64,000 nucleotides of DNA from a virus (lineage: Duplodnaviria > Caudoviricetes), in the IMG/VR virus record IMGVR_UViG_3300035208_006553, positions 44,380 to 108,379 of that record; one strand, given 5' to 3'. The notes under the pieces are model-generated. The model saw nothing but the letters and a program-made list of their open reading frames with translations. It had not been told where the DNA came from and searched no databases. Positions 984 to 24,031 of the stretch are shown here, one piece after another; position 1 is the stretch's first letter, and each line of letters opens with the position of its first letter. The position numbers were made by a program, and so were the translations under genes.

Positions 984-1004
984 AATAAAAGAAGGAGATG
1001 TAAA

Positions 1005-1463: not shown

Positions 1464-1464
1464 T

Positions 1465-3099: not shown

Positions 3100-3108
3100 A
3101 AAAAAGAA

Positions 3109-3903: not shown

Positions 3904-3913
3904 ATGTATAATA
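3903..3913 (+). promoter_or_regulatory. Putative phage promoter, AATGTATAATA motif
   Basis: Same motif recurs in several intergenic gaps upstream of genes. Confidence 0.6.
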
Positions 3914-3928
3914 CAACAAAAAAAAAGT

Positions 3929-5722: not shown

Positions 5723-5725
5723 TAA

Positions 5726-6778: not shown

Positions 6779-6783
6779 AAATT

Positions 6784-7371: not shown

Positions 7372-7397
7372 GATAAATAATACTGTTTTGAAAATGT

Positions 7398-7409
7398 TAA
7401 TGTATAATA
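7398..7409 (+). promoter_or_regulatory. Putative phage promoter TAATGTATAATA
   Basis: Exact motif copy upstream of AAGGAG RBS and ORF 7452. Confidence 0.65.
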
Positions 7410-7451
7410 AATAGCAATTATAATTTTTTTTAATTTAAAGGAGTAATACTA

Positions 7452-8132: not shown

Positions 8133-8143
8133 GGAGGTATTGA

Positions 8144-8542
8144 TTGGCAAGCATAAAAGCAAAGAAAGGAAACCCTTTTGAGAGAAGAGTGGCTTATAAT
8201 TTAATGCAAGCAAATTATAAAGTAGAGCGATTAGATGATAATACTAAAGGGATTGATTTGATTGCTAAAGATTCTGATGAGTCGGTTCTTCCTTATGCTA
8301 TTGAATGTAAATTTCACAAAAAATTTAGTTGGAATGAATTAGTTAAAATTTATATCAAGACAGAAAAGACTAGCGAAAAGCATTTACTCAATCATCATTC
8401 GATTGTAGTATTAAAAGCTAATCAACAACCTCCTCTTGTTATGTATAAAGTAAGTCTCACGTATTTTGTACAAGAATTTACATCTTATTTTAATTGTCAA
8501 TTTGTAGATATTCCAAAAGGTTATAAAGTATGGAAGCAATAA
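8144..8542 (+). CDS. Holliday junction resolvase (PD-(D/E)xK, Hjc-like)
   Basis: KAKKGNPFERRVA, GIDLI, AIECK. Confidence 0.8.
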   Translation: MASIKAKKGNPFERRVAYNLMQANYKVERLDDNTKGIDLIAKDSDESVLPYAIECKFHKKFSWNELVKIYIKTEKTSEKHLLNHHSIVVLKANQQPPLVMYKVSLTYFVQEFTSYFNCQFVDIPKGYKVWKQ

Positions 8543-8564
8543 TGAAAATTAAGGAAATTTAAGT

Positions 8565-9191
8565 ATGAGCGGTATAATAGTTTTTGATATTGAAACATTA
8601 CCTAATGAATTAGATGAAATTACTTCTAAGTTGTTAGATCATAAAGTAAGAAATGTTGTTGAAGAGAAGAAAGAACAAGAAATGTTACAGTATAGATTTC
8701 ACGAACCAGCATATACAAAGGTCTGTTGCATTGGGGCCTTATATGATAAAGGAGATGGATCTGAAATTAAACAAAAGACTTTCTTTTCAAGAGATAATGA
8801 AAAAGAGGTAATTGAAAATTTTATTAATTATATTTCTCAATTTACAGGGAAGTTTGTATCTTTTAATGGACTTGATTTTGATGCACCTTTTATTCTTTAC
8901 AAGTGTTGTCAGTATGGAATTGAACCTCCCCAAAGATTTTGTAATCTTGTACGCTTTCGAGTAACCCCTCATTTTGATTTAATGCAGATACTTACAGTTT
9001 GGGGAAAATTTAGAATCTCTTTAGCTGAAGCTTGTTATAGCTTTGGTATAACAGTAAAAGAAAATCTACATGGATTAGACATTCTAACTTTTCTTCAACA
9101 AGCTTCTGATGAAGACATTCAGCTATATTGTCAAGAAGATGTTCAAAGTACTTATATGTTATATAAAAAAGTAAGTTTAATTTATCAATAG
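8565..9191 (+). CDS. DnaQ/PolB-like 3'-5' exonuclease
   Basis: ExoI VFDIET, ExoII SFNGLDFD, HFDL, ExoIII YCQEDV. Confidence 0.88.
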   Translation: MSGIIVFDIETLPNELDEITSKLLDHKVRNVVEEKKEQEMLQYRFHEPAYTKVCCIGALYDKGDGSEIKQKTFFSRDNEKEVIENFINYISQFTGKFVSFNGLDFDAPFILYKCCQYGIEPPQRFCNLVRFRVTPHFDLMQILTVWGKFRISLAEACYSFGITVKENLHGLDILTFLQQASDEDIQLYCQEDVQSTYMLYKKVSLIYQ

Positions 9192-9202
9192 TAGGAATTA
9201 AA

Positions 9203-9446
9203 ATGAACCACACTTCTCCTTCTCTTGAGACTAGAAAGAAGCAGTCTGATGCAAAAAAGGGATATAAACATACCGAAGAAGCTAAAAGGAAAATGAGTGC
9301 TGCCCGCAAAGGCAGACCTAGTACGAGAAAAGGAATATCCCGTACAGAAGAAGTTAAACGAAAATTATCTATTTTTTAATACTGGCAAAAAGCACACACA
9401 GGAATCAATACAAAAAATGTCTACTTCTCATAAAGGACAAATATGA
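9203..9446 (+). pseudogene. NUMOD3-repeat homing endonuclease remnant, frameshifted, no nuclease domain
   Basis: Translates as ...KKGYKHTEEAKRKMSAARKG...RTEEVKRKLSIF*; removing one T from the T6 run at 9372-9377 continues NTGKKHTQESIQKMSTSHKG. Confidence 0.75.
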
Positions 9447-9973
9447 ATTACATTTTAATCATATTAGGAATATGGGTTTACTTTCGATATTTCGGACCCT
9501 TACTAATTACATTCAAAAAGACATCTACTAATGCTATTACTCCAACTCGAGCTTACGGAAAAGCTGCTTGTTGGGATGTATATGCTCTTGAGAATAAGTC
9601 AATACCTACAGGACAGTGGAGAGAGGTAAAAGTTGGTATATCATTTGCGCCATGGCCTCATATTTATATGCCTTTTTTAAATCTATCTTTGACACCTTTT
9701 GGAAATGTAGCTTACAAAATACACACACGAAGTGGGTTAGCTATAAAAAAAGGATTAAGAAATCATTTAGGCATTATTGATAATGATTATAGAAATGAGA
9801 TAACTGTTATCATGTATAATCATAGTAATGTAGGGTATGCTTATCCAGTTAAGAAAGGAGATAAAATAGCTCAAATAGAATTTTATAGAGTTCCTTCAGT
9901 TTGGATGTTTCAAGTTAATAAATTGAGTAAATCTCAAAGAGGTGAAAACGGTTTTGGGAGTAGTGGAAAGTAA
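9443..9973 (+). CDS. dut: Trimeric dUTPase with hydrophobic N-terminal extension
   Basis: AACWDVY, TRSGLA, GIIDNDYRNEI, GDKIAQI, RGENGFGSSG. Confidence 0.93.
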   Translation: MNYILIILGIWVYFRYFGPLLITFKKTSTNAITPTRAYGKAACWDVYALENKSIPTGQWREVKVGISFAPWPHIYMPFLNLSLTPFGNVAYKIHTRSGLAIKKGLRNHLGIIDNDYRNEITVIMYNHSNVGYAYPVKKGDKIAQIEFYRVPSVWMFQVNKLSKSQRGENGFGSSGK

Positions 9974-10133
9974 TATGTATAATTTTCTAGTTAAAATGTA
10001 CACAGTTTTTGAATTAGCAGAAAGCAGTTGCAAATTCAAATTAGTTACAACTAAATTTCAAAGAATGCAAATACTACTAAGGTGTATTTATGTAGTATTT
10101 AGATTTTGTAAATATTAAAACAAAGGTGAATAG

Positions 10134-11198
10134 ATGTACAAGGATTTTAAATTCGCAGAACATGCAAAAGTAGAAGTATTTACAGATGCTAAAGAGGCTT
10201 TACAAAGATCTTTTGATATTACAGTAAATCCCGTTCCGGCAGTTGTTGAAGAAATTCAAGTAACTGCAGACGGTAAAATAGTATTTAGAGGAGAACAAAA
10301 ATCAATCTCATTAAATGGTATGGAATCATTTTTAAAAATTCTAAGTATACCGCCTTTATTTGCACGTAAATTACCTACAGATTTGTTATTATATAACATT
10401 GATAAGTTAATTAAAGACAGTCCTGCAAAACCTATTTTTGTATTAGAACGTCCTAATAATAACATTGCAAGTATTGTACAAGATCCATATACAGAAATAC
10501 CATATAATGAAGTAATAGGACGATTTATAGAACGACCTGTTAAAAACATTGAATTATCTGAATCTTTGTTAAAGATGACTTTTGTATTTGATACCTTAAA
10601 AGTACCTGATCTAGATGACAGTCAAGATACTTTATATATAGGAGAGTATTTAGTCAGCTCATTAACTAAGTTGACCAGTTTGCAAGCAATAGCTGGATTA
10701 TACAGAACTCAATGTTCAAATTCCTTTATCATGCCGATTCTTGGTAAATTAAAAGCTAATTATATGAAAAAAGAAGATGTTAGATTATTGCGATTTGCAG
10801 ATGCTTTTGAGTGTTATGATCAAAATTTGGTAGCAACAGTTTTTCGTAATTTTGTTCAGAAAAAGCAAGGTTTATTATATGAACACCAAGTAAAACAAAT
10901 TTGGGAAAGGATTGCAAAGGTATTTTCAAAATCGGATGCAGATCAATTATTTAGTTTTGATGATGATTCTAGAAATGCAATTTTATCCAATGCTAGAGGT
11001 TACTTATCAGAAGTTAAAAAAGCAAAAAATTTAAATTTAGTACCTCCAGAAGCTACTACTACACCTTTTCAAGCTTATAAAATCGCAAATGATGTGACAA
11101 CCTCAGCCCACACTCGTATGTATGATATTGTAGATCAAGTACATGCAGAAACAGTTGGAGGAACAATATTGCAATGGATGCTTTTTAGTAACAATTAA
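10134..11198 (+). CDS. Conserved phage hypothetical protein (DUF932-like)
   Basis: GLYRTQCSN motif resembles G..R..C.N of DUF932 proteins. Confidence 0.45.
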   Translation: MYKDFKFAEHAKVEVFTDAKEALQRSFDITVNPVPAVVEEIQVTADGKIVFRGEQKSISLNGMESFLKILSIPPLFARKLPTDLLLYNIDKLIKDSPAKPIFVLERPNNNIASIVQDPYTEIPYNEVIGRFIERPVKNIELSESLLKMTFVFDTLKVPDLDDSQDTLYIGEYLVSSLTKLTSLQAIAGLYRTQCSNSFIMPILGKLKANYMKKEDVRLLRFADAFECYDQNLVATVFRNFVQKKQGLLYEHQVKQIWERIAKVFSKSDADQLFSFDDDSRNAILSNARGYLSEVKKAKNLNLVPPEATTTPFQAYKIANDVTTSAHTRMYDIVDQVHAETVGGTILQWMLFSNN

Positions 11199-11211
11199 TA
11201 ATTAATTTTTT

Positions 11212-12045
11212 ATGTTAAAAATTTATCAAAATTTTAAATGCAATAAAGAATTTTCTACAGATAAATTAAAACGAAGGTTTTGTAGTAGGCGTTGTTCAGG
11301 AGTATATTCAGCCGAAAAGAAAAAAGAATCTGGAAAGAAATACTATCATTCTATAGAAACGAAGCGAAAAATAAGTAAAGGTAACAGAGGTAAGCGAAAG
11401 CCTTCTCCATTTAAAGGGATGACAGCTGCAAAGAGGTATGGAAGTGAAGAGAGGGCTCAAGAAATTCAAAATAGAAGAAGATTGAAATTAATAGGAAAGA
11501 AACACACAGAAGAGCACAAACAAAAAATAGGGAATGCAGGGAGGGGCAGGAAAAAGACAGTAGCAACTCGTTTAAGAATGAGTGAATCTCGTAAAGGAAT
11601 GAAACAGCCAGAGTATGTTAAAAAGAAAATTTCTAAAACTGTTCGTTTAAATAAAATACAGCAATTAGAGAAGAATAGCCAAATATCAAAACCTAGTTAT
11701 AATATTAGATCTTGTGAATTTTTTAAATATTTAGATATTTTATATAAAACAGAAGGAAGATATGCTATTTACGGAGGAGGAGAATATTTTATTAAAGAAC
11801 TAGGTTATTTTCCTGATTATATAAATTTTGATAAAAAATGGATTATTGAATGGGATGAACCTATGCATTTTACTAAGGAAGGTAATTTAAGAGAAAAAGA
11901 TAAAGTTAGACAACAAGAGATTCAAAAGATGTTTCCTGATTATAAATTTATAAGAATCAGGGCTACGTTGAATTTATATAGACTATTACAAAGGAATATG
12001 AAAAAATTAAAATTAGTTAAACTTTCAAAAACAGGGTTTAATTAA
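11212..12045 (+). CDS. Free-standing homing endonuclease (NUMOD3 repeats plus Vsr/DUF559-like nuclease)
   Basis: RFCSRRC, HSIETKRKIS, KKHTEEHKQKIG, YFPDY...IIEWDEPMH...D..RQ..I......FIRI. Confidence 0.8.
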   Translation: MLKIYQNFKCNKEFSTDKLKRRFCSRRCSGVYSAEKKKESGKKYYHSIETKRKISKGNRGKRKPSPFKGMTAAKRYGSEERAQEIQNRRRLKLIGKKHTEEHKQKIGNAGRGRKKTVATRLRMSESRKGMKQPEYVKKKISKTVRLNKIQQLEKNSQISKPSYNIRSCEFFKYLDILYKTEGRYAIYGGGEYFIKELGYFPDYINFDKKWIIEWDEPMHFTKEGNLREKDKVRQQEIQKMFPDYKFIRIRATLNLYRLLQRNMKKLKLVKLSKTGFN

Positions 12046-13380
12046 TTGTATAAATCTCTACATATTAAAAATTTTCAGTCTCACGAAGATTCTCTGATTG
12101 AATTTGATCCTCAAGTTACTGCAATAGTCGGATTAAATAACTTTGGGAAAAGTGCAATATTAAAAGCTCTTCAAAAACTTGTAAGAAATGATCCTGAAGG
12201 AGTCAGTTTTATTAACGAGAATGCAAATGAAACGTTTCTTACTCTCGAAACTGATTTAGGTAATATAAAAAGAGAGATTTATAGAAGTAAACCCAGTGGA
12301 AAATATGTTATTATAAATAAAGAAAATCCAGCTCAAGATTTAGAATTTGTTAATTTTTCTAAAACAGGCATTCCTCAAGAGGTGTTAAATATATTAGATG
12401 TTTCTTCAATTCAGCAATTTGGTACTGATGAGTTTGATCTAAACTTCCATGTTCAAAAAGACAATGATTTTTTAATCAGAGGTAAAGGGTTATCTTCTAC
12501 TAGAAGTAAAGTATTAAGTAAAATTACTGGAGTAGACATTGTTCAAAAAGCTATTCAACTAGGTAGATTAAAAGAAAAAAGGTACGAACAAGAAATTGAT
12601 AATATAAAAAAAGATCAGCAAAAGATTAAATTAGATTTAGAAAAATATAATAATGTTAATGAACTAGATGAGATTATAAAAAATAAGTTACAGCAAATTC
12701 AAAAATTGCAACAATTAGAAACTGATAAAGTTTTTTATAGTGGATCCTTAAGTTCATTACAAAGTATTGTTGAAAAAGCGACTAAATTAAAGAATTTATT
12801 AAAAGATTCAATTTTACAATTTGCTATTAATGATTTATTAGTTTTACGAAACAAAATAGATAATCTTATAAAGTTACAAAAAGTAAGGTATAGAATTAAC
12901 AAGTTGAATCAATTTTTAATAATGTCAGCTGTAGAGTTTAATGTTGATAGATTACAAATTTTACAAACGTTATTTAATAAAGTTGTAAAGATACAAACAT
13001 TAAATAATAAAATTTTACAGTTGGATAAAGTAATTAAAATAAGCACTATTAATTATGATATAAGTACTTTTCAGCATCTTAAATATGCTAAAGAAAAATT
13101 ACAGCAATTTAAAATATGTACTCAGAAAATTTCTAAATTAAACAATGTTACTAAAATTGAATTACCTAATTTAGGAAGTGTTCAAGAGTGTAAAAAGACA
13201 CTACAAAATTATAAAAATATACAACAACAAATGTTATTACTTACTACTTTTTTGTATAATAAAGAACAAGAGGTACAGCAATTATGTGAGATTTTTAATG
13301 AACAAGAGCAAGAATTAATTAGTTATAAAAAAGAACTTAAAATATGCCCTACTTGCGGCGAATTTTTTAAGGAGAATTAA
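12046..13380 (+). CDS. sbcC: Rad50/SbcC (gp46-like) N-terminal half
   Basis: IKNFQSH, Walker A GLNNFGKS, Q-loop, long coiled coil ending in Zn-hook CPTCG; no Walker B. Confidence 0.85.
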   Translation: MYKSLHIKNFQSHEDSLIEFDPQVTAIVGLNNFGKSAILKALQKLVRNDPEGVSFINENANETFLTLETDLGNIKREIYRSKPSGKYVIINKENPAQDLEFVNFSKTGIPQEVLNILDVSSIQQFGTDEFDLNFHVQKDNDFLIRGKGLSSTRSKVLSKITGVDIVQKAIQLGRLKEKRYEQEIDNIKKDQQKIKLDLEKYNNVNELDEIIKNKLQQIQKLQQLETDKVFYSGSLSSLQSIVEKATKLKNLLKDSILQFAINDLLVLRNKIDNLIKLQKVRYRINKLNQFLIMSAVEFNVDRLQILQTLFNKVVKIQTLNNKILQLDKVIKISTINYDISTFQHLKYAKEKLQQFKICTQKISKLNNVTKIELPNLGSVQECKKTLQNYKNIQQQMLLLTTFLYNKEQEVQQLCEIFNEQEQELISYKKELKICPTCGEFFKEN

Positions 13381-13381
13381 A

Positions 13382-14020
13382 ATGGTTTTATATAAGAAAA
13401 CAGAAAACAATGAATATATTACAATTGACGTACAAACTTTAGGTATAGTAAATAACAAAAATTCAGTAGTTGTATTTACTGTAGGAAATGAAGATTATTA
13501 CCCATCCCAGAAAGATATGGAAGAAATTAAAAGTTTTGTAGATCAAGAGTCTGTTTTTAAGAGTAGTGAAGTATTAATATTACCTTTCTATGTTAAAATA
13601 ACAGATATAACCTTGGATAGTGACAAAAATTATTTATTAGTAGTAAATATACCTTTTCATTTTAGTAAAGCTGATGAGGTAAAGGTAGAGAAAGAAATTA
13701 CAGAAAGTTTACAAAGTCACTCTAATATTAAAGTTAAAGTACTTCGTGAAGATCTTAACATTACAGTTCAAGAAGCTAGTCTTAAAAGTAAGTTTCCTCC
13801 TTTAACTCAGCAAATGGTTGAACATATTGATGGAACACCTACTTTGGATTACGCTATTCGTATTTTGAAAGTGTATAGAGAGAATTGTAATTGTAAGTGG
13901 TCTGATTCTTTAAATGAAGAAAACAAAAGTAGATTATTTGATATTATGAACGAGGCGCAAGATAAGAGAGCTGAGTTATTAGATAAAGCAATATCTGCAT
14001 TAGAAGAACATTTAAAGTAG
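13382..14020 (+). CDS. Hypothetical protein
   Basis: 212 aa ORF, AGGAG RBS, operon spacing. Confidence 0.65.
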   Translation: MVLYKKTENNEYITIDVQTLGIVNNKNSVVVFTVGNEDYYPSQKDMEEIKSFVDQESVFKSSEVLILPFYVKITDITLDSDKNYLLVVNIPFHFSKADEVKVEKEITESLQSHSNIKVKVLREDLNITVQEASLKSKFPPLTQQMVEHIDGTPTLDYAIRILKVYRENCNCKWSDSLNEENKSRLFDIMNEAQDKRAELLDKAISALEEHLK

Positions 14021-14237
14021 AAATGACAATGGAAGAGAAAAAGAAAGAGTATGTGAAATATTTGGAAAGGTTAATTAAATTATTACAATCAAATAAGATT
14101 GAATCAATAAGTTGTGATTCACAACATTTTTACTTTCCTGAATTAGGAAGTATTGCGCACATGGCAGGAAAACCTTTTATATTTCATAAAGAAGAAATAA
14201 TTCTTACAATTCATTACAATACAGAAGAATTAAATTA

Positions 14238-15176
14238 ATGATAATAGGATATGTAACAGATACCCATCTTCGATCAGAAACACCGGAAGGCAGAATAGAT
14301 AATTTTAATAACTCTATTCTTACTAAAATGGAAGAGGTGGGTCAGATTTTTAGAGAAGAAAAATGTGATATAATTCTTCATGGAGGTGATTGGGGTGATA
14401 GACCTGATATTCCTTACAGTGTTTATAATGAATTAGTAGGAGCTTTAAAAGCATGGAATAAACCCATTTACGGAATAATAGGAAGTCATGATTATTATGG
14501 GTATCAGATTAAAAGTTTGAAAAGGACTGCAGTAGGAGCTTTATACAAATCAGGTATAATTGAATTAGTTGGCAGCGAAGGTATGAAAGAATATATCGAA
14601 TTAGATGATATTTGCATTTGTGGAACTCCTCATACGTACTGGTTAGATGAAGATTCTAAAAATTATTACAAAGAAAACTATTCTAGTAAAATTCAAATAC
14701 AACTAACTCATGGAATGCTTCTAGAAAAGCCTGCAATCTTTCAACACACTTTACTTACTAATATAGAAACAAAATCTCAATATCTTTTAGGAGCTCATTA
14801 CCATCCTGGCTGGAGTCAATTGTTTTTTAATTTAAAAGGAACAACATTTATTCATCCAGGAGGGTTAGCTAGATTAGACAATACAGGAAAAGTGAGAATT
14901 CCAAAAGCGGTAATTATTAATTCAGTTACTCAAGAAGTCTATAGTAAAGAATTGCAAACAGCTATAGTACACCCATTTAAAGAAAAGGTAACAGATTCTA
15001 AAGAAGAAATAACAATGAATTTAGTAAAAAGAGCACTAGATTATCTTAAAGATACTCAAGTAAGTGTGATAGATATTAAACAACAACTTCCACTTATTGC
15101 AAATAAATTTAAGTATAATTCAGAAATCGTAGATTTAGCTTTTAATTTAATTGAAGAAGCAGAAAAGGAGAAATAA
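14238..15176 (+). CDS. sbcD: Mre11/SbcD-like nuclease (gp47-like)
   Basis: TDTH, HGGDWGD, GSHD, LTHG, GAHYH, HPG metallophosphoesterase motifs next to SbcC halves. Confidence 0.88.
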   Translation: MIIGYVTDTHLRSETPEGRIDNFNNSILTKMEEVGQIFREEKCDIILHGGDWGDRPDIPYSVYNELVGALKAWNKPIYGIIGSHDYYGYQIKSLKRTAVGALYKSGIIELVGSEGMKEYIELDDICICGTPHTYWLDEDSKNYYKENYSSKIQIQLTHGMLLEKPAIFQHTLLTNIETKSQYLLGAHYHPGWSQLFFNLKGTTFIHPGGLARLDNTGKVRIPKAVIINSVTQEVYSKELQTAIVHPFKEKVTDSKEEITMNLVKRALDYLKDTQVSVIDIKQQLPLIANKFKYNSEIVDLAFNLIEEAEKEK

Positions 15177-15179
15177 TAA

Positions 15180-15752
15180 ATGAGGAAGTGGGAAATATCA
15201 AAACAGTTTGAATTTTCATACGGGCATAGAGTTTGGAGTCAGGAATTAAATAAAGAATTTAGTTTAGATAATAGCTGCTTTTGCCGGTTCATACACGGTC
15301 ATAATTCAGTTCTTGTAGTTTATCTTGAAGCAAGTAGTTTAATAAATGGAATGGTAACAGATTTTAAAAATTTAAATTGGTTAAAGAAATGGATTGACAA
15401 TACTATTGATCACAAGTTTATTATGGACATTAACGATCCGCTATTACCTCACGAAGTATCTGAACCTATAAATCGTTTTATAGGAAATTTTGGAATGAGT
15501 TTTGAAAAAGATGGTCTAATTAAACATGCAGAAGGATATGCTACAATCAATCCTAAATGTTACGAGGATTTTATTTTTCCCGTACGGGAGAAATTTGAAG
15601 GTATGGTATTTGTTTCTTTTGTACCCACTTCAGAAAATTTAAGTAAATGGATATTTGAAATAATTCAAGAAAAAATGTTAAAAATAGGTATAAAAGTATC
15701 TAAAGTAGATTTCTACGAGACACCTAAATCGAAATCTAGTTATTCAATTTAA
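15180..15752 (+). CDS. queD: 6-carboxy-5,6,7,8-tetrahydropterin synthase (QueD/PTPS family)
   Basis: F.FSYGHR, C..IHGH, GMVTDF, DHKF, PTSENL, ETPKS. Confidence 0.9.
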   Translation: MRKWEISKQFEFSYGHRVWSQELNKEFSLDNSCFCRFIHGHNSVLVVYLEASSLINGMVTDFKNLNWLKKWIDNTIDHKFIMDINDPLLPHEVSEPINRFIGNFGMSFEKDGLIKHAEGYATINPKCYEDFIFPVREKFEGMVFVSFVPTSENLSKWIFEIIQEKMLKIGIKVSKVDFYETPKSKSSYSI

Positions 15753-16540
15753 CTACAAATTAACAGTGAAAAGGTGTAAGAATTGAAAGATTTATTAAGT
15801 CAAAATAATTTTAAGTTTGATAAAATAGAATTTAAGAAGTTTGTTTGCAATGATTGTGGTGCTATATTTCAATCAGATGAATATACAACAAGAGAAAGCA
15901 AGAAAGATATTAATATGTCATATTTTATTGATACATGTATTACTTGTAAAAGTGAATGTATAATTAGTGAATTGAAAAATGCCAGTAATTAGAATTTATA
16001 ATAACGGGTATATTTTTGATAGTGCTCGAGTGGCAAATTTTGTTCAACAAATTGATGAACTTATATGTAAAATAGAATCTCTAGATTTAGAAGTAGATGT
16101 TGAAATAATAAATTTTAAAGGAAAAGTGTTAAAAGAAAAGAATTATTGTAATAAAGATGTATTTTTTATTGAAGATTTGTATGATAAGTTATATAAATGT
16201 ATAAATACATACAGTAACGATTTACCTTTTTAAGTGCAGGAGGTGTATTTATTATGGATAAAAAATTATTTTCAGATTATGCTACTGTAATAGTAGGTGG
16301 ACAGACATATTATTGGAATATTAATAAGAGATATACTTATGTATATAGTGAAAGTGAGGAGTTAATGTTTATGTTACTTGCAACAGTAGACGAACTTCAA
16401 ATAAAAGCAGGAATAATTGGCTTTAATAATGGTCACATGCACATTAAAGATAAAGTAAAGAAAAGTATTGCAGAATTACGTAGTTTAATAGGCATACCAA
16501 TTACTCTTGAAATGATTGAAAAGTTAGAAAAGGAATTAAA

Positions 16541-16819
16541 ATGAGTAACGTACAAGAACAGACACCCGCTGACAAATTGACTTCTCTTCAAGCTAAAATT
16601 AAAGAGATTGAAAATAAAAGAATAGGTGCAAATAAAGAGATTGAATTATTGAAAGAGCAATATACAGAGTTAAAGAAGACTCTAGAAGAATTAGGAATAT
16701 CAAATTTAGATGATTTACCTAATTTAATTGTTCAATTAGAAGATGAGTTTAATCAGCAACTTGCATGTGCTGAAAAAGATGTTGAAAGAATTGAACAAGT
16801 CCTTTCTGCAAATGTCTAA
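16541..16819 (+). CDS. Coiled-coil protein, possibly part of the split SbcC arm
   Basis: 92 aa pure heptad pattern upstream of SbcC C-half. Confidence 0.45.
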   Translation: MSNVQEQTPADKLTSLQAKIKEIENKRIGANKEIELLKEQYTELKKTLEELGISNLDDLPNLIVQLEDEFNQQLACAEKDVERIEQVLSANV

Positions 16820-17080
16820 TCAAAAAAAAGAAATAGATCTTAATATACTTGAAGGTAAATACTATCACACAAGAGGTGGCTGGATAGCTAAAGTAGTACA
16901 TGTAAGTACATCTCAGAAAATTTGTTATGTTATTCATAATCCTGGAGATGCAACAGAATCAGCCCCAATTTTACATGATAAAAAGAACGGATTTGCTCTT
17001 TATCCTAGTATATTAGCTTTTTTAGTACCTCCTGCCTATGGAGGACATCCTGCAGATTTAATAGAGGAAGTTACTACAAA

Positions 17081-17785
17081 TTGATTGATCTATTAATTAG
17101 TTACAACGAACATCTTAATAAAGTCAATCAAACATTACAACGCCAAATAGGACAGAGAGATGTTTTGTTGCAAAATCAAAAAGAGAGTGAGAAAAAAGAA
17201 GCAAATGTTATAAACTTGCTTGGTAACATTTCAAAAGCTAAATTGTTATTAGAAATGGTAGTAAGGAGTACTGAAATAAGGGTAAAATCTTATATTGAAC
17301 CTTTCGTAACTGAAGCACTAGATTTCATTTTTAATCAAAATTTAAAATTTCATATAGTATTTATTGATAGAAGAGGACAAATAGAAGTAGATTTTATTGT
17401 ACTTCCTTCTAATAAGGTAGAAGAAGATTACCAAACTTACTTAAATGATGTAGTAACTTACGAACAAGAATTTGATCAGTTAGTAAAAATATACAGAAAT
17501 ATTAATTACTTTTATGGAGGAGCTGTTCAGGAAATATTAGGTGTAGTATTGAGATTAGTAATGATAGAATTATTACAAATAAAAGGACCTGTGTGTTTAG
17601 ATGAACCTACATCTAGTTTTCACGAGCAGTATGCAGCACGTGTTGGTGTATTTATTAAATCATTAAGTGAAAGGTTTAATAGACAAATTATATATGTTAC
17701 ACACAGTCATGCTTTAGCTGCTGCTGCTAATAAAGTATACGAAGTGAAAAAAGACAGGGGTATCAGTAGAGTAGAGGAAATTTAA
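17081..17785 (+). CDS. sbcC: Rad50/SbcC C-terminal half
   Basis: Coiled coil, degenerate signature YGGAVQ, Walker B/D-loop CLDEPTS, H-loop YVTH. Confidence 0.85.
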   Translation: MIDLLISYNEHLNKVNQTLQRQIGQRDVLLQNQKESEKKEANVINLLGNISKAKLLLEMVVRSTEIRVKSYIEPFVTEALDFIFNQNLKFHIVFIDRRGQIEVDFIVLPSNKVEEDYQTYLNDVVTYEQEFDQLVKIYRNINYFYGGAVQEILGVVLRLVMIELLQIKGPVCLDEPTSSFHEQYAARVGVFIKSLSERFNRQIIYVTHSHALAAAANKVYEVKKDRGISRVEEI

Positions 17786-17790
17786 AATAA

Positions 17791-18312
17791 ATGAAAGTTA
17801 ACTTAAAAATTAAAAATAGAGGGCCTTTTATAGTTGCTCCTATTCATTGTCCTTATAAAGTTCAAGAACAAGATATTAAGTTTGATAGTTATCAGAATGA
17901 ACAAGCAGACACAGATAAAGAAATTTTTACAGTTCATTCTTCTATTTGTCCTCTTTGTAAGTTATGTGAATTTATTCCTGAAATAAACGATACACAATTA
18001 GTTTTAAATACCGAAGGTTTTACAAAATATTTAACATTGTTGAATGAAGAAGTGTCAAAATCGATTAGAGGTCAAGTTCTTTATCTTCAAAAAGAAAATA
18101 GATTACCAATTGCAATACTTATAAGCCCGGTAATTTTTGATAGTATGTTAAAATTAACTTATAAAGATAGTCAAGATCAGTATTATTTAGCTTATTCTTA
18201 TTTTATTAATAATGAAGTTCCTATTTGTTATATAACTGGTTGTCCTGTTTACCTTTCTCGAAAATTAACTAAATCTCTTATTCAAGTAGTTGGCGAGGTT
18301 GAATGGCGTTAA
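17791..18312 (+). CDS. Hypothetical protein
   Basis: 173 aa ORF with Cys motifs. Confidence 0.6.
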   Translation: MKVNLKIKNRGPFIVAPIHCPYKVQEQDIKFDSYQNEQADTDKEIFTVHSSICPLCKLCEFIPEINDTQLVLNTEGFTKYLTLLNEEVSKSIRGQVLYLQKENRLPIAILISPVIFDSMLKLTYKDSQDQYYLAYSYFINNEVPICYITGCPVYLSRKLTKSLIQVVGEVEWR

Positions 18313-19147: not shown

Positions 19148-19333
19148 ATGTATCAGTCTGATAATATAAAAAATAAATTTAGATTAAAAATATTTTTATT
19201 GTTGAAGAAAAATACAGATCAATTTTTAGAAACAAAAAATGAATTAATAAAGAAAAATGTATTAAGACGGATAAACAAATTATTAGACTGTATTTATTTA
19301 TTTATTAAATCTAAAAGAATTAGTTTAAGCTAA
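19148..19333 (+). CDS. Small basic protein, paralog of the loop-encoded ORF at 22749
   Basis: RLKIFLLLKKNTD...RRINKLL.CIYL shared with 22749..22919. Confidence 0.6.
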   Translation: MYQSDNIKNKFRLKIFLLLKKNTDQFLETKNELIKKNVLRRINKLLDCIYLFIKSKRISLS

Positions 19334-19855
19334 TTTGAGGATACAATGAACCAAGAACTAAACAAAATAATAAGCGATTTAGAATATGCTGCTTATAATT
19401 TATGTAACGGCAAAAAAGATACAGATTTACCGCCGGGAATAATTAACTCTACTGGCGCAGAGGATTCTCTTTTAATTGCTATACGTGATTTGAAAGAGAT
19501 AACCAATCGCCACGAACCGCTAGTTAGCGGGAAACTTGCGGACTTTACAGTTTCTGAGCTAATGATAAAAATGAATGAAATTATCGGACAATATCCAGTG
19601 CAAGGTAATTATGCAGATGATGGAAGATATACTTACCCCGGTAGATGGAATGCTTTACTTAAATACATAAAAGAAAAATGAAAACAGTGATTACTAAAAA
19701 CGGAAATCTTGCTTGTAACATTACAAGTGACGAATTGGAACAAATTAAAGAAGATTTGCGACCGACAACAAGACGCAATGATTCTCTATACGAAATATTT
19801 AAGCAAATAGCAGAAGAAGATAAAAAGGTGAATCCAGAACTTTACGAAGATACTA

Positions 19856-20070
19856 CCCGCTAATAATTACAACGAAACGATGTGACGGTTAATTTAACAC
19901 GAACATAAAAGAAGAAATAATGGATTTAAACCAACTTTATATTGAAAATTGTGAGGGCTTTGACGAGTATATGCCCGATGGTTCTTGCCGAAACGGATTG
20001 CGAATGACACTTGATGGATTTCAAAATGCACTAAGAAAATTGAGTGGTCAAATTGAACCGCAAGTTATAA
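19856..20070. repeat. attC-like site (decayed left arm)
   Basis: CCCGCTAAT complements GTTAGCGGG at 19523; right arm ...ATTGAACCGCAA-GTTATAA with GTT at 20064. Confidence 0.6.
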
Positions 20071-20620
20071 AGCAAACGGCGGAAGCAATAAGAGAACTTT
20101 TACAGTTAGCACAAGCAACCCATACTTATTGTGAGGATGGTTATTATAGTTGCCCGAAAGCTGAAGGTGGATGCTATAATGGTGCTTATAAAGAAGATGA
20201 ATGTAATTGCGGTGCAGACAAACAAAACGAACGAGTTACAGAATTAAAAACAATTTTAATGAATGATAGACGTTTGACGTTGTAGAAAAGAAGTATTAGC
20301 ATGGGCTTTGAAAGTACAAAATGAAGAAAGCATACATCCTTTTGATGTGGTATCAAGTTCTAAATCTGATAATTGGAAATTTTATTAATAGTATATGTTT
20401 TATAAATGTAAAAGAAAGTAGTTAAAAGTTAACTTAAATACTGTAATTTTATGTTGAAAATAAAAGAATTTCATAGAAGATACTTCTTGATTTATTGTAT
20501 CCTTTATTACATATTGTAGTTGTAAGAATTATAAAAATAATCAGGAGAAAAAAAAATGGATGCATCAACTTACAAAAACACACCAACAAAATTAAATATT
20601 CTAGAACAAGAAGTAAAACA

Positions 20621-20818
20621 ATATAGCGGAAATGCGTTTAGCCGGACACGGGAATTTAATAAAATAAATTTGAGGTTGATATGAAAGATTACCAAGTAAC
20701 AATAGACTTAGCAAAAAACATTTGAACATGGAAGAGGTTGACCCCGATGTATGGGCTGCAGACGTGGCAAAGCTCATACGAATAATTGAAAGTATTCCAG
20801 CTGAAACGCTGATTAGGC
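20621..20818. repeat. attC-like site (both cores mutated: TAGC / ATT)
   Basis: Left GCGTTTAGCCGGACAC pairs with right GTATTCCAGCTGAAACGC; loop start nearly identical to the site at 22015. Confidence 0.7.
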
Positions 20819-21036
20819 GAGGGCGTTCTTTGCCCGATGTGGCTTGCGGTAATTGTAAACAAATAGAGTTTTGGTATATGAAAATAAAAATCCAAGACGA
20901 ATGGATGGACGGAGTAAGCGGGGAATATAATTTTGTTAAACAATACTGCGATGCAATTACTGACCACGACTGGAAAATAATAAAAGTTACACAGTATAGA
21001 GGCGACAAGGAAGAAGAAATTGAAAGCAAGCCATCT

Positions 21037-21227
21037 GCCTAACGGCTGAGCCATAACCCGCCGAGCGGGAATTGAAAACTAAAATAGGAATTGAAAAATG
21101 AAAAACATTAACGATTGGATAACAGAAAATTTTCTTGCAAGCGAGAGAGAAAATAAATTAAATGATCTTAAAGAAATAATTTTATCCGACCGAGCAAGCG
21201 AGGTCGGTGTTAATGGCATCGTTATGC
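21037..21227. repeat. attC-like site
   Basis: GCCTAAC-GGCTGA-GCCATAACCCGCC ... GGTCGGTGTTAATGGC-ATC-GTTATGC. Confidence 0.8.
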
Positions 21228-21556
21228 CGAAAATTGGTGAACCGGCACTTAGTAACTGGACATTGGTTTGCAACTTGTTAGATGAGTTTCTGCAAGCTAA
21301 TCGCCACGAAGTTTTTGTTATAGCGAGTGAGCATACCGAAGGTAGCTCTGCGAACGGTGCGGTTGCGGACGTACAGGAGTTGTTAAGGGCAATAAGAGAT
21401 TTAGACCAAAGGGAAAGGTTGGTTCTCACTATGTATTACAACGAAAAATTAACGTTAAAAGAAATTGCATCTATCTTTGATTGGACGATTGACGCAACAC
21501 AAAAACAGTTTGAAAATATTATAAACAAACTAAAGATAGCAACCGCATCGCTATAA
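21098..21556 (+). CDS. Chimeric cassette ORF with C-terminal sigma-70 region 4 HTH (FliA/WhiG-like)
   Basis: AIRDLDQRERLVLTMYYNEKLTLKEIA; crosses two att right arms in frame; stop codon lies in the TAAC core. Confidence 0.75.
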   Translation: MKNINDWITENFLASERENKLNDLKEIILSDRASEVGVNGIVMPKIGEPALSNWTLVCNLLDEFLQANRHEVFVIASEHTEGSSANGAVADVQELLRAIRDLDQRERLVLTMYYNEKLTLKEIASIFDWTIDATQKQFENIINKLKIATASL

Positions 21557-21681
21557 CGTAGTTGCGGCTAAACTGCACCGACATAGGAAAAAATAATTAA
21601 ATGAATTATAAATTCACGCATATCATCAAATGCGAAAATCTAAGACACCGTAAGGTGTCAGATTTGAGCCGCTGGTTATGT
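21551..21681. repeat. attC-like site
   Basis: CTATAAC-GTAGTT-GCGGCTAAACTGCACC ... GGTGTCAGATTTGAGCCGC-TG-GTTATGT. Confidence 0.85.
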
Positions 21682-21691
21682 GGAAAATTTT

Positions 21692-21774
21692 GGAAGGTTG
21701 CGAGCAATGGCGCTCAAGCGGTCTTGAAAACCGTGCTATCGGCAACGATAAGGGTTCGATTCCTTAACCTTCCG
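21692..21774 (+). tRNA. tRNA-Ser (anticodon TGA)
   Basis: Acceptor GGAAGGT/ACCTTCC plus G discriminator, anticodon arm GCGGT-CTTGAAA-ACCGT, long variable arm, T-loop GTTCGATTC. Confidence 0.88.
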
Positions 21775-21910
21775 CTAGGTCGAGTTCGATTCTCGATGGG
21801 TTACTGACATGCTGGTGCGAATGGAGTTAGGTTCGATTCCTAATGATTACGGTCTTAGAAATAAGATAACTCTGAGAGCTGAGTATGACAGCCGGGAAAG
21901 ACCGGCGAAT

Positions 21911-21993
21911 GGAAGATTGGCAGAGTGGTAATGCAACGGCTTGCTAAGCCGCACAACAGAAATGTTGCAGAGGTTCGATCCCTCTATCTTCCG
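21911..21993 (+). tRNA. tRNA-Ser (anticodon GCT)
   Basis: Acceptor GGAAGAT/ATCTTCC plus G, D-loop AGTGGTA, anticodon arm CGGC-TTGCTAA-GCCG, long variable arm, T-loop GTTCGATCC. Confidence 0.9.
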
Positions 21994-22014
21994 CAAGATG
22001 CGAAAAATTTTTCC

Positions 22015-22219
22015 ACATAACGGAGTTGCCCATAAGCGGACACGGAAATTTAATAAATAAATTTGAGGTTACAAATGCAAGACGAAAAATTAAACGAAAT
22101 TAAAAGACGGATAGATGTTACTTACCAGGGGGACAGAAATCTTGCCGTAATGTTACAAGATGTTATTTATCTCTATAAAAAACTGGAAGAAAGTGTTCCG
22201 CTTGATGGGCTGGTTATGA
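22015..22219. repeat. attC-like site
   Basis: ACATAAC-GGAGTT-GCCCATAAGCGGACAC ... GTGTTCCGCTTGATGGGC-TG-GTTATGA. Confidence 0.85.
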
Positions 22220-22368
22220 CGCAAGCCGACTACTTAAAAGAAATTGAGACAGCCATAGAAAACACAGTTAATGAATATGACCATATATTAAATATGAAGC
22301 GATACCCGCAAGTTGAAGATATGGAAAAGTGGATTAGGAATTTGAGAGAAGCCATACAACCATTTTAG
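22063..22368 (+). CDS. Cassette ORF, hypothetical (likely ATG at 22075)
   Basis: Starts in att loop after GAGG RBS; crosses GTT at 22213 as Val. Confidence 0.65.
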   Translation: MRLQMQDEKLNEIKRRIDVTYQGDRNLAVMLQDVIYLYKKLEESVPLDGLVMTQADYLKEIETAIENTVNEYDHILNMKRYPQVEDMEKWIRNLREAIQPF

Positions 22369-22376
22369 GCTTGTCG

Positions 22377-22508
22377 GTATAACGGATCAGCGACAACCCG
22401 CAAGCGGTAGTTTAATAAAAACTAAATTGATAAAGGAATGATATATGAAAACAAAGAAAAATAAACCGACAAGCGATAGCGCAGTCGGCGTTGGTTGCGT
22501 AGTTAGTT
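22377..22508. repeat. attC-like site
   Basis: GTATAAC-GGATCA-GCGACAACCCGC ... GTCGGCGTTGGTTGC-GTA-GTTAGTT. Confidence 0.8.
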
Positions 22509-22720
22509 TGCCGAACGAAATTTTGATAGAGGTTGAAGGCAGACAAAAAAGAGTTTTAACGAAAGATTATGTAACCGCAAAGACTAAACAATTGCAAGAA
22601 TTTGGTTACACAAAATTAACAGAAGAAGAAGTTTCTTCTGAATTACAAAATATATTAAGCAATAAACCGCTTAATGTTATTGGGATGTTTATGAAAGATG
22701 ACATCGTGAGGTCAAACTAA
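22445..22720 (+). CDS. Cassette ORF, hypothetical
   Basis: Starts in att loop after AAGGA; crosses GTT at 22502 as Val; stop in next TAAC core. Confidence 0.7.
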   Translation: MKTKKNKPTSDSAVGVGCVVSLPNEILIEVEGRQKRVLTKDYVTAKTKQLQEFGYTKLTEEEVSSELQNILSNKPLNVIGMFMKDDIVRSN

Positions 22721-22925
22721 CGTAGTTGAAACTAAAGCGTGAGCGAACATGGAAGACCAATTGAGAGTAAAGATATTTTTATTGTTGAAGGAAAATACGG
22801 ATTTGTTCTTAACAACAAATAATAAATTAATAAGAAGAAACTCATTGAGGCGAATAAACAAATTATTGACCTGTATTTATCTATTGAACTTAAAAGAGCG
22901 AATCGCTTTGAGTTTTTAGTTATAA
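22715..22925. repeat. attC-like site with a complete 56 aa ORF (22749..22919) in its loop
   Basis: AACTAAC-GTAGTT-GAAACTAAAGCG ... CGCTTTGAGTTTT-TA-GTTATAA. Confidence 0.8.
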
Positions 22926-22950
22926 ATTTTTTGGCGGAAGGAGCAAGACA

Positions 22951-23136
22951 ATGAAAATTATATTAGTACCACATTGTAAAAAATGCCCTCACGGTGCGCA
23001 ATGGAATTTAGAAGGAACTGAATATATGTGTGGAAAGAAAACAAAAATTAATTCTGATAAAAATATACCGGAATGGTGCCCTTTGATGGAAGCAACGGAG
23101 TTCTTAAGAAAGGTTAATAGCCAAAAACAATTATAA
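22951..23136 (+). CDS. Cassette ORF, small Cys-rich protein
   Basis: CxxCP...C...IPEWCPL; own GGAG RBS; stop in TAAC core. Confidence 0.7.
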   Translation: MKIILVPHCKKCPHGAQWNLEGTEYMCGKKTKINSDKNIPEWCPLMEATEFLRKVNSQKQL

Positions 23137-23415
23137 CGTGGCGCGGGCTTACCCGTTTGCGGTGAATGAAAAACTAAATTAGGAGAAACAACAATGATAG
23201 GTTTTAACAGAGTAGCAAAATTTGATGATGGCAGATTGATGTATAGAAATATAATAACTAACGACTATACAAGGCTCTCTTTTGTGTATAGGGACGACAT
23301 TAAATATAAACCTTACCCAACTATGCAAATAACTTGTACAGGGTGGAGTTTTAGCTGGTGGAGGTTTTGGGTATGGCACGAAAAGAAGCAAATCAGGCTG
23401 AAACGCTAGTTAGCC
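23131..23415. repeat. attC-like site with partly mismatched (hybrid) arms
   Basis: TTATAAC-GTGGCG-CGGGCTTACCCGTTTGC ... GCAAATCAGGCTGAAACGC-TA-GTTAGCC; loop ORF 23194..23409 ends at the core. Confidence 0.65.
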
Positions 23416-23566
23416 AAGCCGCTTCTCGGGCGGTGTTGCTTGCGGAAATGAGAGAAGGATTACGAATAGCAATGAATAATTGGAAACGCTGTTATTATGG
23501 ATATGGGAAAGAAGTTATGAAAGAAACAAGCGAAGAAACTTTGGCTAATTTACATTTAGATGATGA

Positions 23567-24031
23567 GTGGAGTGGATTAAATTAAACAAAACACAAAGCG
23601 TGTTAATGAAAATGAGCGAAGGTAATCCCGGAGCTTTAACAACGATGATGCAAATAATGATGGAACACGATAATATTGATCCGCAGGCGATGATGGGTGG
23701 AATGGGTGTGATATTATTATTTGACACATTCCAAATTTATGGCTCATCAATTTATATTTTGTTCAACGACCAATGTAACAGGGATGTGAGGGAGTTATTG
23801 ATGCTAATGAGAGCTACGCAACTTGGGTTATTCAGTAGTCGCAACCTTAAACAGATTGCCGATGACCAAATGGGAAAACATTTATTAAGCAAAGAGCAGA
23901 TGGATGAACTTGATAAAAAAGTATGTGAGCAATTAGAACAATTTACAACCAGAGAAGCGTGGGAGAACGCAAAGAAGCATCCGTATAACGGATCTCCGTT
24001 TGTGCCGGTTGCGACATTAATTAAAAAATAG
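23567..24031 (+). CDS. Hypothetical phage protein
   Basis: MSEGNPGA...D...IYGSSIYILFND.C; contains an att left arm (GTATAAC 23983) read through out of frame. Confidence 0.65.
   Translation: MEWIKLNKTQSVLMKMSEGNPGALTTMMQIMMEHDNIDPQAMMGGMGVILLFDTFQIYGSSIYILFNDQCNRDVRELLMLMRATQLGLFSSRNLKQIADDQMGKHLLSKEQMDELDKKVCEQLEQFTTREAWENAKKHPYNGSPFVPVATLIKK

Follow-up and report, generated by a model that had tools for sequence, protein, structure and literature searches.

What is a run of large palindromes doing in a tailed phage genome? Integrons are usually seen as bacterial devices and are only occasionally phage-borne. The palindromes in question lie at ∼19.9–24.0 kb of the window, a 64,000-nt stretch of an uncultured tailed phage whose available fragment measures 108,379 bp and is an estimated 61% complete. 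A first-pass annotation of the letters alone had proposed an integron-like gene-capture system in a jumbo phage. Genuine attC cassettes are present, but as an integrase-less array and not as a whole system, and a fragment of this size and completeness leaves the jumbo designation unsupported. The region is likely a cluster of integron gene cassettes lacking its own integrase (CALIN) in a large tailed phage, with the integron integrase, IntI, supplied in trans, most plausibly by an Ignavibacteria-type host. A CALIN is defined by at least two attC sites that share an orientation and lack a nearby integrase, and here three intact and several decayed sites share the + strand, with a fourth intact site at 44.8 kb. 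Neither an intI gene adjacent to the sites nor a recognizable attI, the marks of a complete integron, was found in the 108-kb fragment.

Sites and cassettes of the array

All sites of the array lie on the + strand and span 125–281 nt. The first-pass annotation counted about 10 palindromes; the sites are there, but cognate 12-bp arms occur within the interval only at 21554/21675, 22018/22213, and 22718/22919, and the remainder are decayed sites or hybrid or orphan half-sites. Since only three or four sites are intact, this phage's copy may now be largely inert. Related arrays reach 7–9 sites, and those of loci L006, L022, L025, and L041 are built of intact sites. In the following list, an X/X' repeat is an inverted repeat of the form GTTA-X / X'-TAAC.

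19875–20067, + strand: decayed attC site (19875/20064), core AAAC for TAAC; 10/12 L-stem pairs, consensus-type spacer, G at position 16
20624–20645, + strand: orphan 5' half-site, core TAGC, 6-nt spacer, 12-nt arm
21040–21320, + strand: hybrid attC site with non-cognate arms; TAAC and GTTA cores present, 2/12 arm pairs
21043–21556, + strand: cassette with a 152-aa ORF (21098–21556) whose stop is the TAA of the core; exact 10-nt X/X' repeat at 21317/21557
21554–21678, + strand: intact attC site, 125 nt; 6/6/2 geometry, 10/12 stem pairs, G16
21557–22020, + strand: tRNA cassette with tRNA-Ser(TGA) at 21692–21775 and tRNA-Ser(GCT) at 21911–21994 (ARAGORN, Rfam); perfect 13-nt X/X' repeat at 21675/22021
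22018–22216, + strand: intact attC site, 199 nt; 12/12 stem pairs, G16, T23; promoter-like motif and start of the 97-aa ORF in the loop
22021–22382, + strand: apparently mobile cassette with the 97-aa ORF (22075–22368); 99.2% identity across contexts, TAAC at both ends of the homology
22380–22505, + strand: decayed or hybrid attC site; cores and spacers present, 4/12 in-register pairs
22383–22720, + strand: cassette with a 91-aa ORF (22445–22720) whose stop is the TAA of the core; exact 9-nt X/X' repeat at 22502/22721
22718–22922, + strand: intact attC site, 205 nt; 12/12 pairs including G-T, G16, T23; 56-aa ORF (22749–22919) in the loop
22721–23136, + strand: cassette with a 61-aa ORF (22951–23136); 17-nt X/X' repeat with one indel at 22919/23137
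23134–23412, + strand: hybrid attC site, 5' and 3' arms from different sites; 5/12 pairs
23986–24010, + strand: orphan 5' half-site at the array's right end; TAAC, consensus spacer, arm homologous to the L006 site at 1334, no 3' partner
44422–44945, + strand: second mini-array of a decayed site (44422/44535), a cassette, and an intact attC site (44756–44945)

Several arms have partners elsewhere. Read by eye, the arm of the 20624 half-site pairs 11/12 with a 3' arm at 23394–23408, 2.8 kb away, which is the 3' arm of the hybrid site at 23134–23412; the homologue of this half-site in L016 is an intact site. The GTTA at 21317 has an exact junction to another, cognate left side in other metagenome contigs and in the L016 site as well. 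A stem of 6–7 bp in a shifted register is possible by eye at 22380–22505, and the L stem of the 21554–21678 site is present in its minimum-energy DNA fold (z −3.0). Ends homologous to those of the 22721–23136 cassette are found twice in L006. In the second mini-array, the intact site (44756/44942) forms 11/12 pairs, an X/X' repeat joins 44535 to 44759, and 44418–44538 is 87% identical to L016 10700–10826. A 37-nt stretch at 23399–23435 is repeated at 44932–44968.

The C terminus of the 152-aa ORF matches the sigma-70 region 4 domain (Pfam PF04545, E 1.2e-8). A cassette with two tRNA-Ser genes is new here and adds an example with tRNA genes as cargo; 14 related loci had no tRNA cassette. Four ORFs, and not the five counted at first, end on the TAA of a TAAC (21042, 21556, 22720, and 23136), and the fifth ends at a decayed TAAT core at 19863.

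The observation that bases after each GTTA complement those before the next TAAC withstood comparison with other pairings. Besides the repeats listed above, weaker ones occur at 22213/22383 and 19523/19865, and one core is mutated in the repeats 19523/19865 and 20813/21037. Across the window and three related arrays, GTTA-X matches the next X'-TAAC at 8.9 of 12 positions (n=26), compared with 4.7/12 for the same hairpin (n=29) and 5.2/12 for other pairs within the same array (n=176; 95th percentile 8). Each cassette extends from the C of one TAAC through the TAA of the next and so holds both GTTA-X and its complement X'-TAA, which accounts for the chain of complementarity.

Site design and the recombinogenic strand

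The attC bottom strand is marked by two extrahelical bases, G16 and T23/24, that flank 6 bp of stem, and it is cleaved at the A/C step of AAC (PMC5027507). Read on the coding strand, the phage sites consist of TAAC, a 6-nt spacer (consensus GGNGTK), a 12-bp L stem, a loop of ∼60–280 nt, a 2-nt spacer, and GTTA. The 3' arm of the stem carries an extrahelical G at position 16 and an extrahelical T at position 23, six pairs apart. This is the architecture, extra G/T bases included, that the initial reading had described. The inverted AAC/GTT triplets of the R box are represented by TAAC and GTTA cores at every intact site; the base before the core is A in 36/53 sites and the base after it T in 32/53. 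G16 occurs in 50/53 phage and 14/14 bacterial sites and T23 in 47/53 and 13/14, and stem pairing past T23 rises from 1.4/5 without the bulge to 3.8/5 with it. As in other attC sites, structure is kept and sequence is not, as evidenced by compensatory changes: across 53 distinct phage-type sites, 4–6 pair types occur at each of positions 2–5 and 9–11, which make up seven of the 12 positions in the stem. Five related loci (64 kb) hold 32 sites with at least 11/12 stem pairs versus 0.26 in shuffles. The cassette boundary falls in the core triplet, as judged from next-site complementarity and from shared-cassette homology that ends at TAAC.

Two features lie outside the published ranges. Published sites have 5–6 unpaired spacer bases per arm, whereas these have 6 nt on the 5' arm and 2 nt on the 3' arm; the GTT-to-G16 distance is nevertheless preserved, with six pairs standing in for the usual three. 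Published lengths are 57–141 bp, compared with 115–318 nt in the phage contigs (125–205 nt for intact sites in the window) and 178–221 nt in Ignavibacteria arrays. The description of the sites as non-canonical thus holds for spacer asymmetry and loop length but not for G16 and T23, which are canonical. Because these two extrahelical bases sit on the coding strand, that strand is, to judge from its sequence, the counterpart of the classical bottom, recombinogenic strand (PMC5027507), bearing out the earlier suspicion of inverted polarity.

The layout of the genes follows the same strand. The recombinogenic strand is the one that encodes the phage genes of these arrays, and most of these genes begin within an attC loop. 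The loop supplies the start codon, a ribosome-binding site, and, a short way upstream of the ORF, an AT-rich promoter-like motif. The ORF then passes through the 3' arm with GTT as a codon, and its stop is often the TAA of the next core. Of the 53 phage sites, 36 are traversed by an ORF in the GTT frame, and 32 of these ORFs have their start in the loop; of 14 bacterial sites, 2 are traversed by an open frame. Genes on the recombinogenic strand that start within the attC loop are new here. They indicate that attC can tolerate coding sequence across the L and R boxes, a point relevant to synthetic attC design.

Probable cassette exchange among phages

Comparison of contexts supports cassette-type mobility at the core. 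The 22018–22383 cassette is 99.2% identical in three contexts, including L002/L016 and L006–L011, that are otherwise unrelated, and its homology begins and stops at TAAC. For one common 5' arm, TAAC marks the junction with at least 19 distinct upstream ends, and metagenome contigs break or change partner at cores. Taken together, the identical unit and the switching of partners agree with the cassette shuffling first suggested from the letters alone. Two other viral fragments, G001 and G002, share only two protein matches with this phage, both to ORFs inside its attC arrays; unrelated phages seem to trade accessory genes via a bacterial gene-shuffling enzyme. The 6-nt spacer tracks neither neighboring cassette, and the crossover can therefore be placed no finer than TAAC.

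Some junctions instead fall at GTTA or within the loop. A 35-nt promoter repeat has only one copy pair in the window (94% identical), and one metagenome contig links 20285 to 22037 through it. There seems to be a homology-driven layer in the loops of the phage array. As a second process, homologous recombination between similar promoter-bearing loops may swap half-sites, which would explain why this copy has hybrid and orphan arms.

These same arms could be read as the mark of a fossil array, a stretch of integron acquired once and no longer recombined in phages, with differences between contigs due to homologous recombination and decay. Most sites in this phage being hybrid or orphan halves would fit such a history, as would the population joint through the 35-nt repeat and the lack of an integrase in the 108-kb fragment. 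It is nonetheless an unlikely account. The phage cassettes differ in kind from those of the host, with the ORF on the other strand and its start in the loop, and therefore are not simply chromosome copies. A fossil would also have to accommodate a TAAC-bounded cassette that unrelated genomes share at 99% identity, the many upstream ends met by one arm, and the intact sites that make up L006, L022, L025, and L041.

Source of the recombinase

Searches for tyrosine and serine recombinases found none in the 108-kb fragment or in two other array-bearing viral fragments (61%, 51%, and 46% complete): within the 108-kb fragment (G000), neither PF00589 nor PF00239 matched anything at E up to 1, and PF00589 had no match in G001 or G002. 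A Pfam scan of 77 ORFs had no recombinase family among the families listed (25 of 42 families in one batch). The earlier suggestion of a distant or host tyrosine recombinase fits these results, given that the same site design is found beside an Ignavibacteria IntI.

Integrons in Ignavibacteriae were noted in the IntegronFinder 2.0 paper (PMC9024848). Locus L030 has an integron integrase gene (TIGR02249, 430.7 bits, cutoff 265), after which come cassettes that end in same-design sites on the opposite strand. The closest IntI relatives of this enzyme are from Ignavibacterium and Melioribacter (73–78% identity), and their arrays have the same ∼180-nt site type. Ignavibacteria-type loci yielded 11 instances of the site geometry in 198 kb and phage loci 33 in 96 kb, whereas 776 kb of integron loci belonging to other phyla yielded none. 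The sedentary chromosomal integrons of Ignavibacteria share with the phage arrays TAAC, the GGCGTT-type spacer, the 12-bp stem, G16, T23, the 2-nt spacer, GTTA, and the chain complementarity. Unlike the phage arrays, they are adjacent to intI and have uniform ∼180-nt sites, and their genes, of which a single cassette often holds several, are encoded by the other strand and positioned upstream of the site. No shared cassette and no spacer-like match emerged when 401 Bacteroidota genomes were searched at the DNA level.

The array is probably recombined by host IntI. Acting in trans, IntI would bind the strand in its folded, single-stranded form and cleave AAC at its A/C step, with cassettes leaving or entering as circles; the enzyme would most likely be the chromosomal IntI of an Ignavibacteria-type host. 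The identity of the enzyme, its supply by the host, the identity of that host, and the circular intermediates are all inferred. Some other recombinase might use the sites instead, for example a single-strand HUH enzyme or a small Xer-like one whose gene lies in the rest of the phage genome, beyond the available fragment, and the non-canonical spacer geometry and the lack of IntI in three phage fragments would be in keeping with this. Such an enzyme is improbable, because at least five Ignavibacteria-type loci have same-design sites adjoining a TIGR02249-positive integrase, G16 and T23 are IntI-specific contacts (PMC5027507), PF00589 had no match in the three incomplete phage fragments and PF00239 none in the 108-kb one, and the only integrase among 49 ORFs of at least 170 aa from array-bearing loci is the bacterial IntI.

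Recombination in trans has precedent. Phage CALINs have been published, and attC sites of virulent phages were recombined by bacterial IntI in trans (Qi 2023). Those arrays likewise consist of attC sites in phage genomes with no intI near, but they were found with the standard attC model, two sites being enough, and two have the usual cassette orientation. Here, in contrast, the sites are long and lineage-specific, relatives hold 7–9 of them, all genes lie on the recombinogenic strand, most start inside a site, and the same cassette occurs in unrelated phages.

A different precedent is provided by the PeSL cassettes of T4-type phages, for which circles have been detected (Arbiol et al. 2010, PMC2839356; PMC4122927). 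There, too, the hyperplastic region of a large lytic-type phage holds small ORFan genes. Every such gene has its own promoter beside a stem-loop and is shuffled as a unit, with no dedicated recombinase encoded. Regulatory cassettes of this type, recombining by sequence homology alone, would suit the AT-rich promoter-like motif just upstream of the ORF in each loop and the 35-nt copy pair with its contig joint, and the phage does encode RecA, a UvsW-like helicase, and an SbcC-like protein with phosphoesterase. PeSL elements recombine via a conserved promoter and terminator stem-loop, however, whereas here only 4 nt and a spacer consensus are conserved, the stems covary within an attC structure, homology at the main junctions is limited to the 4-nt core, and fixed extrahelical bases and spacers indicate structure recognition; this explanation, which accounts for hybrid half-sites and some secondary joints but not for TAAC-bounded units, is very improbable.

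A fuller model of host-driven exchange can be put forward only tentatively. Phages of Ignavibacteria-type hosts may keep their own pool of backwards, self-promoted cassettes, with a start in the loop, a fixed frame through the 3' arm, and a stop on the core. Unrelated phages would swap these cassettes, tRNA genes included, by hijacking the host integrase during infection, and rarer exchanges on the GTT side or in the loop would recombine the N- and C-terminal halves of small proteins. The uncultured phages concerned, a family from landfill and groundwater, have long arrays of host-type attC sites with cassettes rebuilt for phage use, each with a promoter-like motif of its own. The presence of identical cassettes in unrelated members would make a host enzyme one of the drivers of accessory-gene mosaicism among phages.

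Architecture of the attC-like sites

The small ORFs between 19.5 and 24.0 kb alternate with sites in which TAAC, a 6-nt stretch and a box are followed by a long loop, the complement of that box, a 2-nt stretch and GTTA. Sites are named here by the starts of their TAAC and GTTA cores. The first-pass annotation held that the bases after each GTTA complement those before the next TAAC rather than those of the same hairpin, and this pattern is borne out. Averaged over the window plus three related arrays, the 12-base stretch that follows GTTA is complementary at 8.9 of 12 positions to the stretch preceding the next TAAC (n = 26); for the TAAC of its own hairpin the mean is 4.7, and for other TAACs of the array it is 5.2. 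The same annotation had five ORFs stopping on the TAA of a core; four do, and the fifth ends on a mutated core.

Inverted repeats (X/X') between the bases after GTTA and the bases before the next TAAC
21317/21557, exact, 10 nt
21675/22021, exact, 13 nt
22502/22721, exact, 9 nt
22919/23137, one indel, 17 nt

Relatives comprise 14 public contigs found through an identical 97-aa protein (ORF 22075-22368) and 35 more retrieved with one 3' arm as the pattern. The sites follow a fixed order: TAAC, a 6-nt spacer (consensus GGNGTK), 6+6 pairs and a loop; on the 3' arm an unpaired G splits the two sets of six pairs, and a 2-nt spacer precedes GTTA. Five loci contain 32 sites that form 11 or 12 of the 12 pairs, versus 0.26 in shuffled sequence, and a relaxed site scan proved too noisy to be of use. 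The stem covaries, with four to six pair types at seven positions among 53 distinct sites. Of these 53, 50 have the unpaired G, and in 47 a T lies directly past the second six pairs, with pairing resuming beyond it; counted from the 3' end, the G and T occupy positions 16 and 23. Arrays in related loci are dense (9 sites in 4.7 kb of L006, 8-9 in L022, 7 in L025 and 6 in L041), and all sites lie on the gene strand. In DNA folding, the L stem forms at 21554/21675 and the full attC-like fold forms in one L006 site, and another site folds otherwise; thermodynamics by itself decides nothing.

In the recombinogenic attC bottom strand as published, the base at 16 is an extrahelical G, that at 23 or 24 is a conserved T, and a 6-bp stem separates the two (Nivina et al.; PMC5027507). 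The phage sites share G16, T23 and the intervening 6-bp stem, but their central spacer measures 6 and 2 nt rather than 5-6 on each arm, and they are 115-318 nt long versus 57-141 bp. The sole conserved attC triplet is AAC, cleaved between A and C (PMC5027507). A phage cassette would run from the C of one core through the TAA of the next if crossover on the + strand fell at AA|C. Two other kinds of element were rejected: IS200/IS605-type ends have compact hairpins and two differing ends, and the arms here lack the symmetry around the spacer of double-stranded Xer/dif-type sites.

Phage genes are woven through these sites. An open frame with GTT as a codon crosses 36 of the 53 phage sites versus 2 of 14 bacterial ones. 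Among those 36 ORFs, the first start codon lies in the loop in 32, and 16 stop on the core TAA. The fixed frame through the site is attributed to its conserved bases: as the consensus reads, TTGA around G16 would close one frame (TGA) and the 'TA' spacer before GTT would close another (TAG). The loops contain a small CCG-N4-CGG hairpin as well as an AT-rich motif that terminates, 10-20 nt upstream of the start codon, in TAAATTTG-like boxes; these boxes presumably resemble the -7 element of Bacteroidota-type promoters. Cassette 21557-22020 has two tRNA-Ser genes and no credible ORF, and a search of 14 related loci found no further tRNA cassette.

Transfer of cassettes between phage genomes

Evidence for mobility includes the cassette of the 97-aa protein; this protein is letter-for-letter identical on the 14 public contigs, in three different neighbourhoods. 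Its unit (22018-22383) is 99.2% identical between the window phage, the viral contig behind L002/L016 and the L006-L011 loci. Between the window and L016, identity begins at a TAAC and ends at the next TAAC; the left core of the L006 copy is decayed. The viral contigs behind L016 and L022 have in common with the window phage only two protein matches, both to ORFs within its attC arrays. Purely RNA-level structures were rejected, as they leave this TAAC-bounded transfer between genomes unexplained.

Other junctions at cores are seen as well. At least 19 different cassette ends adjoin, at TAAC, the upstream side of a single common 5' arm, and near-identical L006-group contigs diverge from a TAAC or a GTTA onward. 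Linkage of the 6-nt spacer to the upstream or downstream cassette is uninformative. Metagenome runs were compared with the region as assembled contigs, a view blind to circles, ends and rare forms. In these, Logan contigs from landfill and groundwater runs break at 21039, 21533-21562, 22049-22066 and 22383, with depths that differ up to ninefold. Nine contigs (five from run X3 and four from X4) have an alternative left side joined exactly at GTTA 21317, and one contig of depth 2.2 joins 21557 directly to 23142, in the cassette starting at 23138. A joint that goes back from 22940 to 21068, and several with intervening sequence not known, are ambiguous. Alternative arrays on the same backbone were not recovered because the matched contigs end at the array. 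Exact-protein look-ups (sigma-like, 91-aa, 71-aa, 61-aa, SLT-domain and 109-aa) returned only the phage's own context, and no usable relatives were obtained when the flanking SLT-domain (lytic transglycosylase-like) and DUF5661 proteins served as queries for related loci.

Directly upstream of the 97-aa cassette in L002 (1708-3960; IMGVR_UViG_3300037067_010064) are matches to Csf3, RAMP (faint) and PAPS reductase, which look like a type IV CRISPR-like module beside the attC array of L002/L016. Separately, 23358-24031 is 99.5% identical to 520-1188 of L146, a contig from another sample in which the 75-aa and 154-aa ORFs form one 222-aa gene. One of the two assemblies has a frameshift, since the aligned span of L146 is 5 nt shorter overall.

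Relation to Ignavibacteria integrons

Integrons are recorded in Ignavibacteriae (PMC9024848), and one array-bearing locus, L030, is bacterial. Its 390-aa protein scores 430.7 bits on the TIGR02249 integron-integrase model (cutoff 265), and this intI is followed downstream by two cassettes, one of three genes and one HNH, each ending in a site of the phage design on the opposite strand and with the expected start-to-site complementarity. The closest relatives of this IntI (73-78% identity) are in Ignavibacterium, Melioribacter, Stygiobacter and Rosettibacter genomes, where the arrays adjoining intI have sites of ~180 nt with the phage-type spacer consensus, G16 and T23. Sites in Ignavibacteria-type arrays are on the strand opposite intI and the cassette genes, and, unlike in the phage, those genes end ahead of the site.

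Ignavibacteria-type IntI loci (198 kb) contain 11 copies of the site design, and phage-like loci (96 kb) contain 33. In integron loci of other phyla (776 kb) it has 0 occurrences; a generalised canonical-geometry scan also found few sites there, so that this comparison is without a positive control for the canonical design. Judged by these counts, the 6/6 design is lineage-specific. On sequence evidence the phage sites are attC sites of the Ignavibacteria integron lineage, because the same design adjoins the intI genes of that lineage and is absent from integron loci of other phyla. Integrase-less attC arrays (CALINs) have been published for phages, so the kind is already known. In the literature searched, we found no published account of lineage-specific long sites, reversed genes woven through attC, a tRNA cassette or exchange between unrelated phages.

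Searches found neither a tyrosine nor a serine recombinase in the 108-kb phage fragment, no tyrosine recombinase in either of the two other, incomplete viral fragments, and no recombinase among the Pfam families listed for 77 phage ORFs (25 of 42 families in one of three batches). Among 49 ORFs from array-bearing loci, the bacterial IntI is the sole integrase. Class 1 IntI recombined attC sites of virulent phages in trans (Qi et al. 2023; PMC9892861), and by analogy the simplest reading would be that a host IntI acts in trans on the phage sites. A host search of five Ignavibacteria genomes found nothing shared with the phage. Among 401 Bacteroidota genomes there is a 28-nt match only, between window 22938-22965, which covers the ribosome-binding site and first codons of a 61-aa cassette ORF, and the rpsR-rplI junction of one genome (G096), from which IntI is absent. 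The match, at a ribosomal-protein gene junction, is not a CRISPR spacer; chance or the copying of a translation start could account for the identity.

Site decay, probable loop exchange and genome context

This copy of the array combines intact and broken sites, and only the first four below keep cognate arms.

Sites in the array and in a second mini-array (44422-44945)
21554/21675, cognate arms kept
22018/22213, cognate arms kept
22718/22919, cognate arms kept
44756/44942, cognate arms kept (second mini-array)
21040/21317, non-pairing arms
22380/22502, non-pairing arms
23134/23409, non-pairing arms
23986, lone 5' half-site at the array end

By eye, the partner of the 5' half-site at 20624 is the 3' half at 23394-23408, 2.8 kb away. 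A 35-nt promoter-bearing stretch occurs twice (20643-20677 and 22037-22070), and a metagenome contig connects 20285 with 22037 across this repeat. These are taken as a probable second, homology-driven kind of exchange inside loops, which would keep genes intact and break sites and resembles the PeSL cassettes of T4-type phages (PMC2839356).

Other repeats were observed in the array. The paralogous small ORFs 19148-19333 (61 aa) and 22749-22919 (56 aa) have 79.5% DNA identity over 127 bp; the latter is inside an intact attC loop (22718) and the former at the decayed left array edge. A 340-bp AT-rich stretch (20282-20622) directly after the 121-aa ORF is 96.5% identical to genome positions 36068-36411, 28.6 kb upstream and outside the window. 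It is missing at this position in a metagenome variant, and each of the four runs has a contig that shows an identical set of eight differences from the window across the stretch.

The source IMG/VR contig is linear, 108,379 bp long and 30% G+C, with an estimated completeness of ~61%; the window is its right-hand 64 kb, and the + strand carries all its genes. The expected size of ~178 kb, with ~70 kb apparently absent from the contig, makes the phage large and leaves its earlier description as a jumbo phage without support. In blastn against GenBank phages, the contig resembles none beyond its tRNAs. Pfam matches outline a set of tailed-phage genes (baseplate J, RecA, UvsW-like helicase, DnaB, primase, sigma factor, ribonucleotide reductase, NUMOD-type homing endonucleases, phosphoesterases alongside an SbcC-like ATPase, and queuosine-pathway genes), the last of which suggest 7-deazaguanine DNA modification. 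The upstream genome and window 1-18000 encode QueC, QueF, FolE2, a PTPS-type enzyme, a bacterial-type RecA and a Cpn60-type chaperonin. A ~480-bp module with 85-95% identity is repeated in several large genes between 34302 and 64000 (at 34302, 51385, 55061, 56356, 59224 and 62929), and the assembly probably stopped at the contig end because the contig terminates inside another copy.
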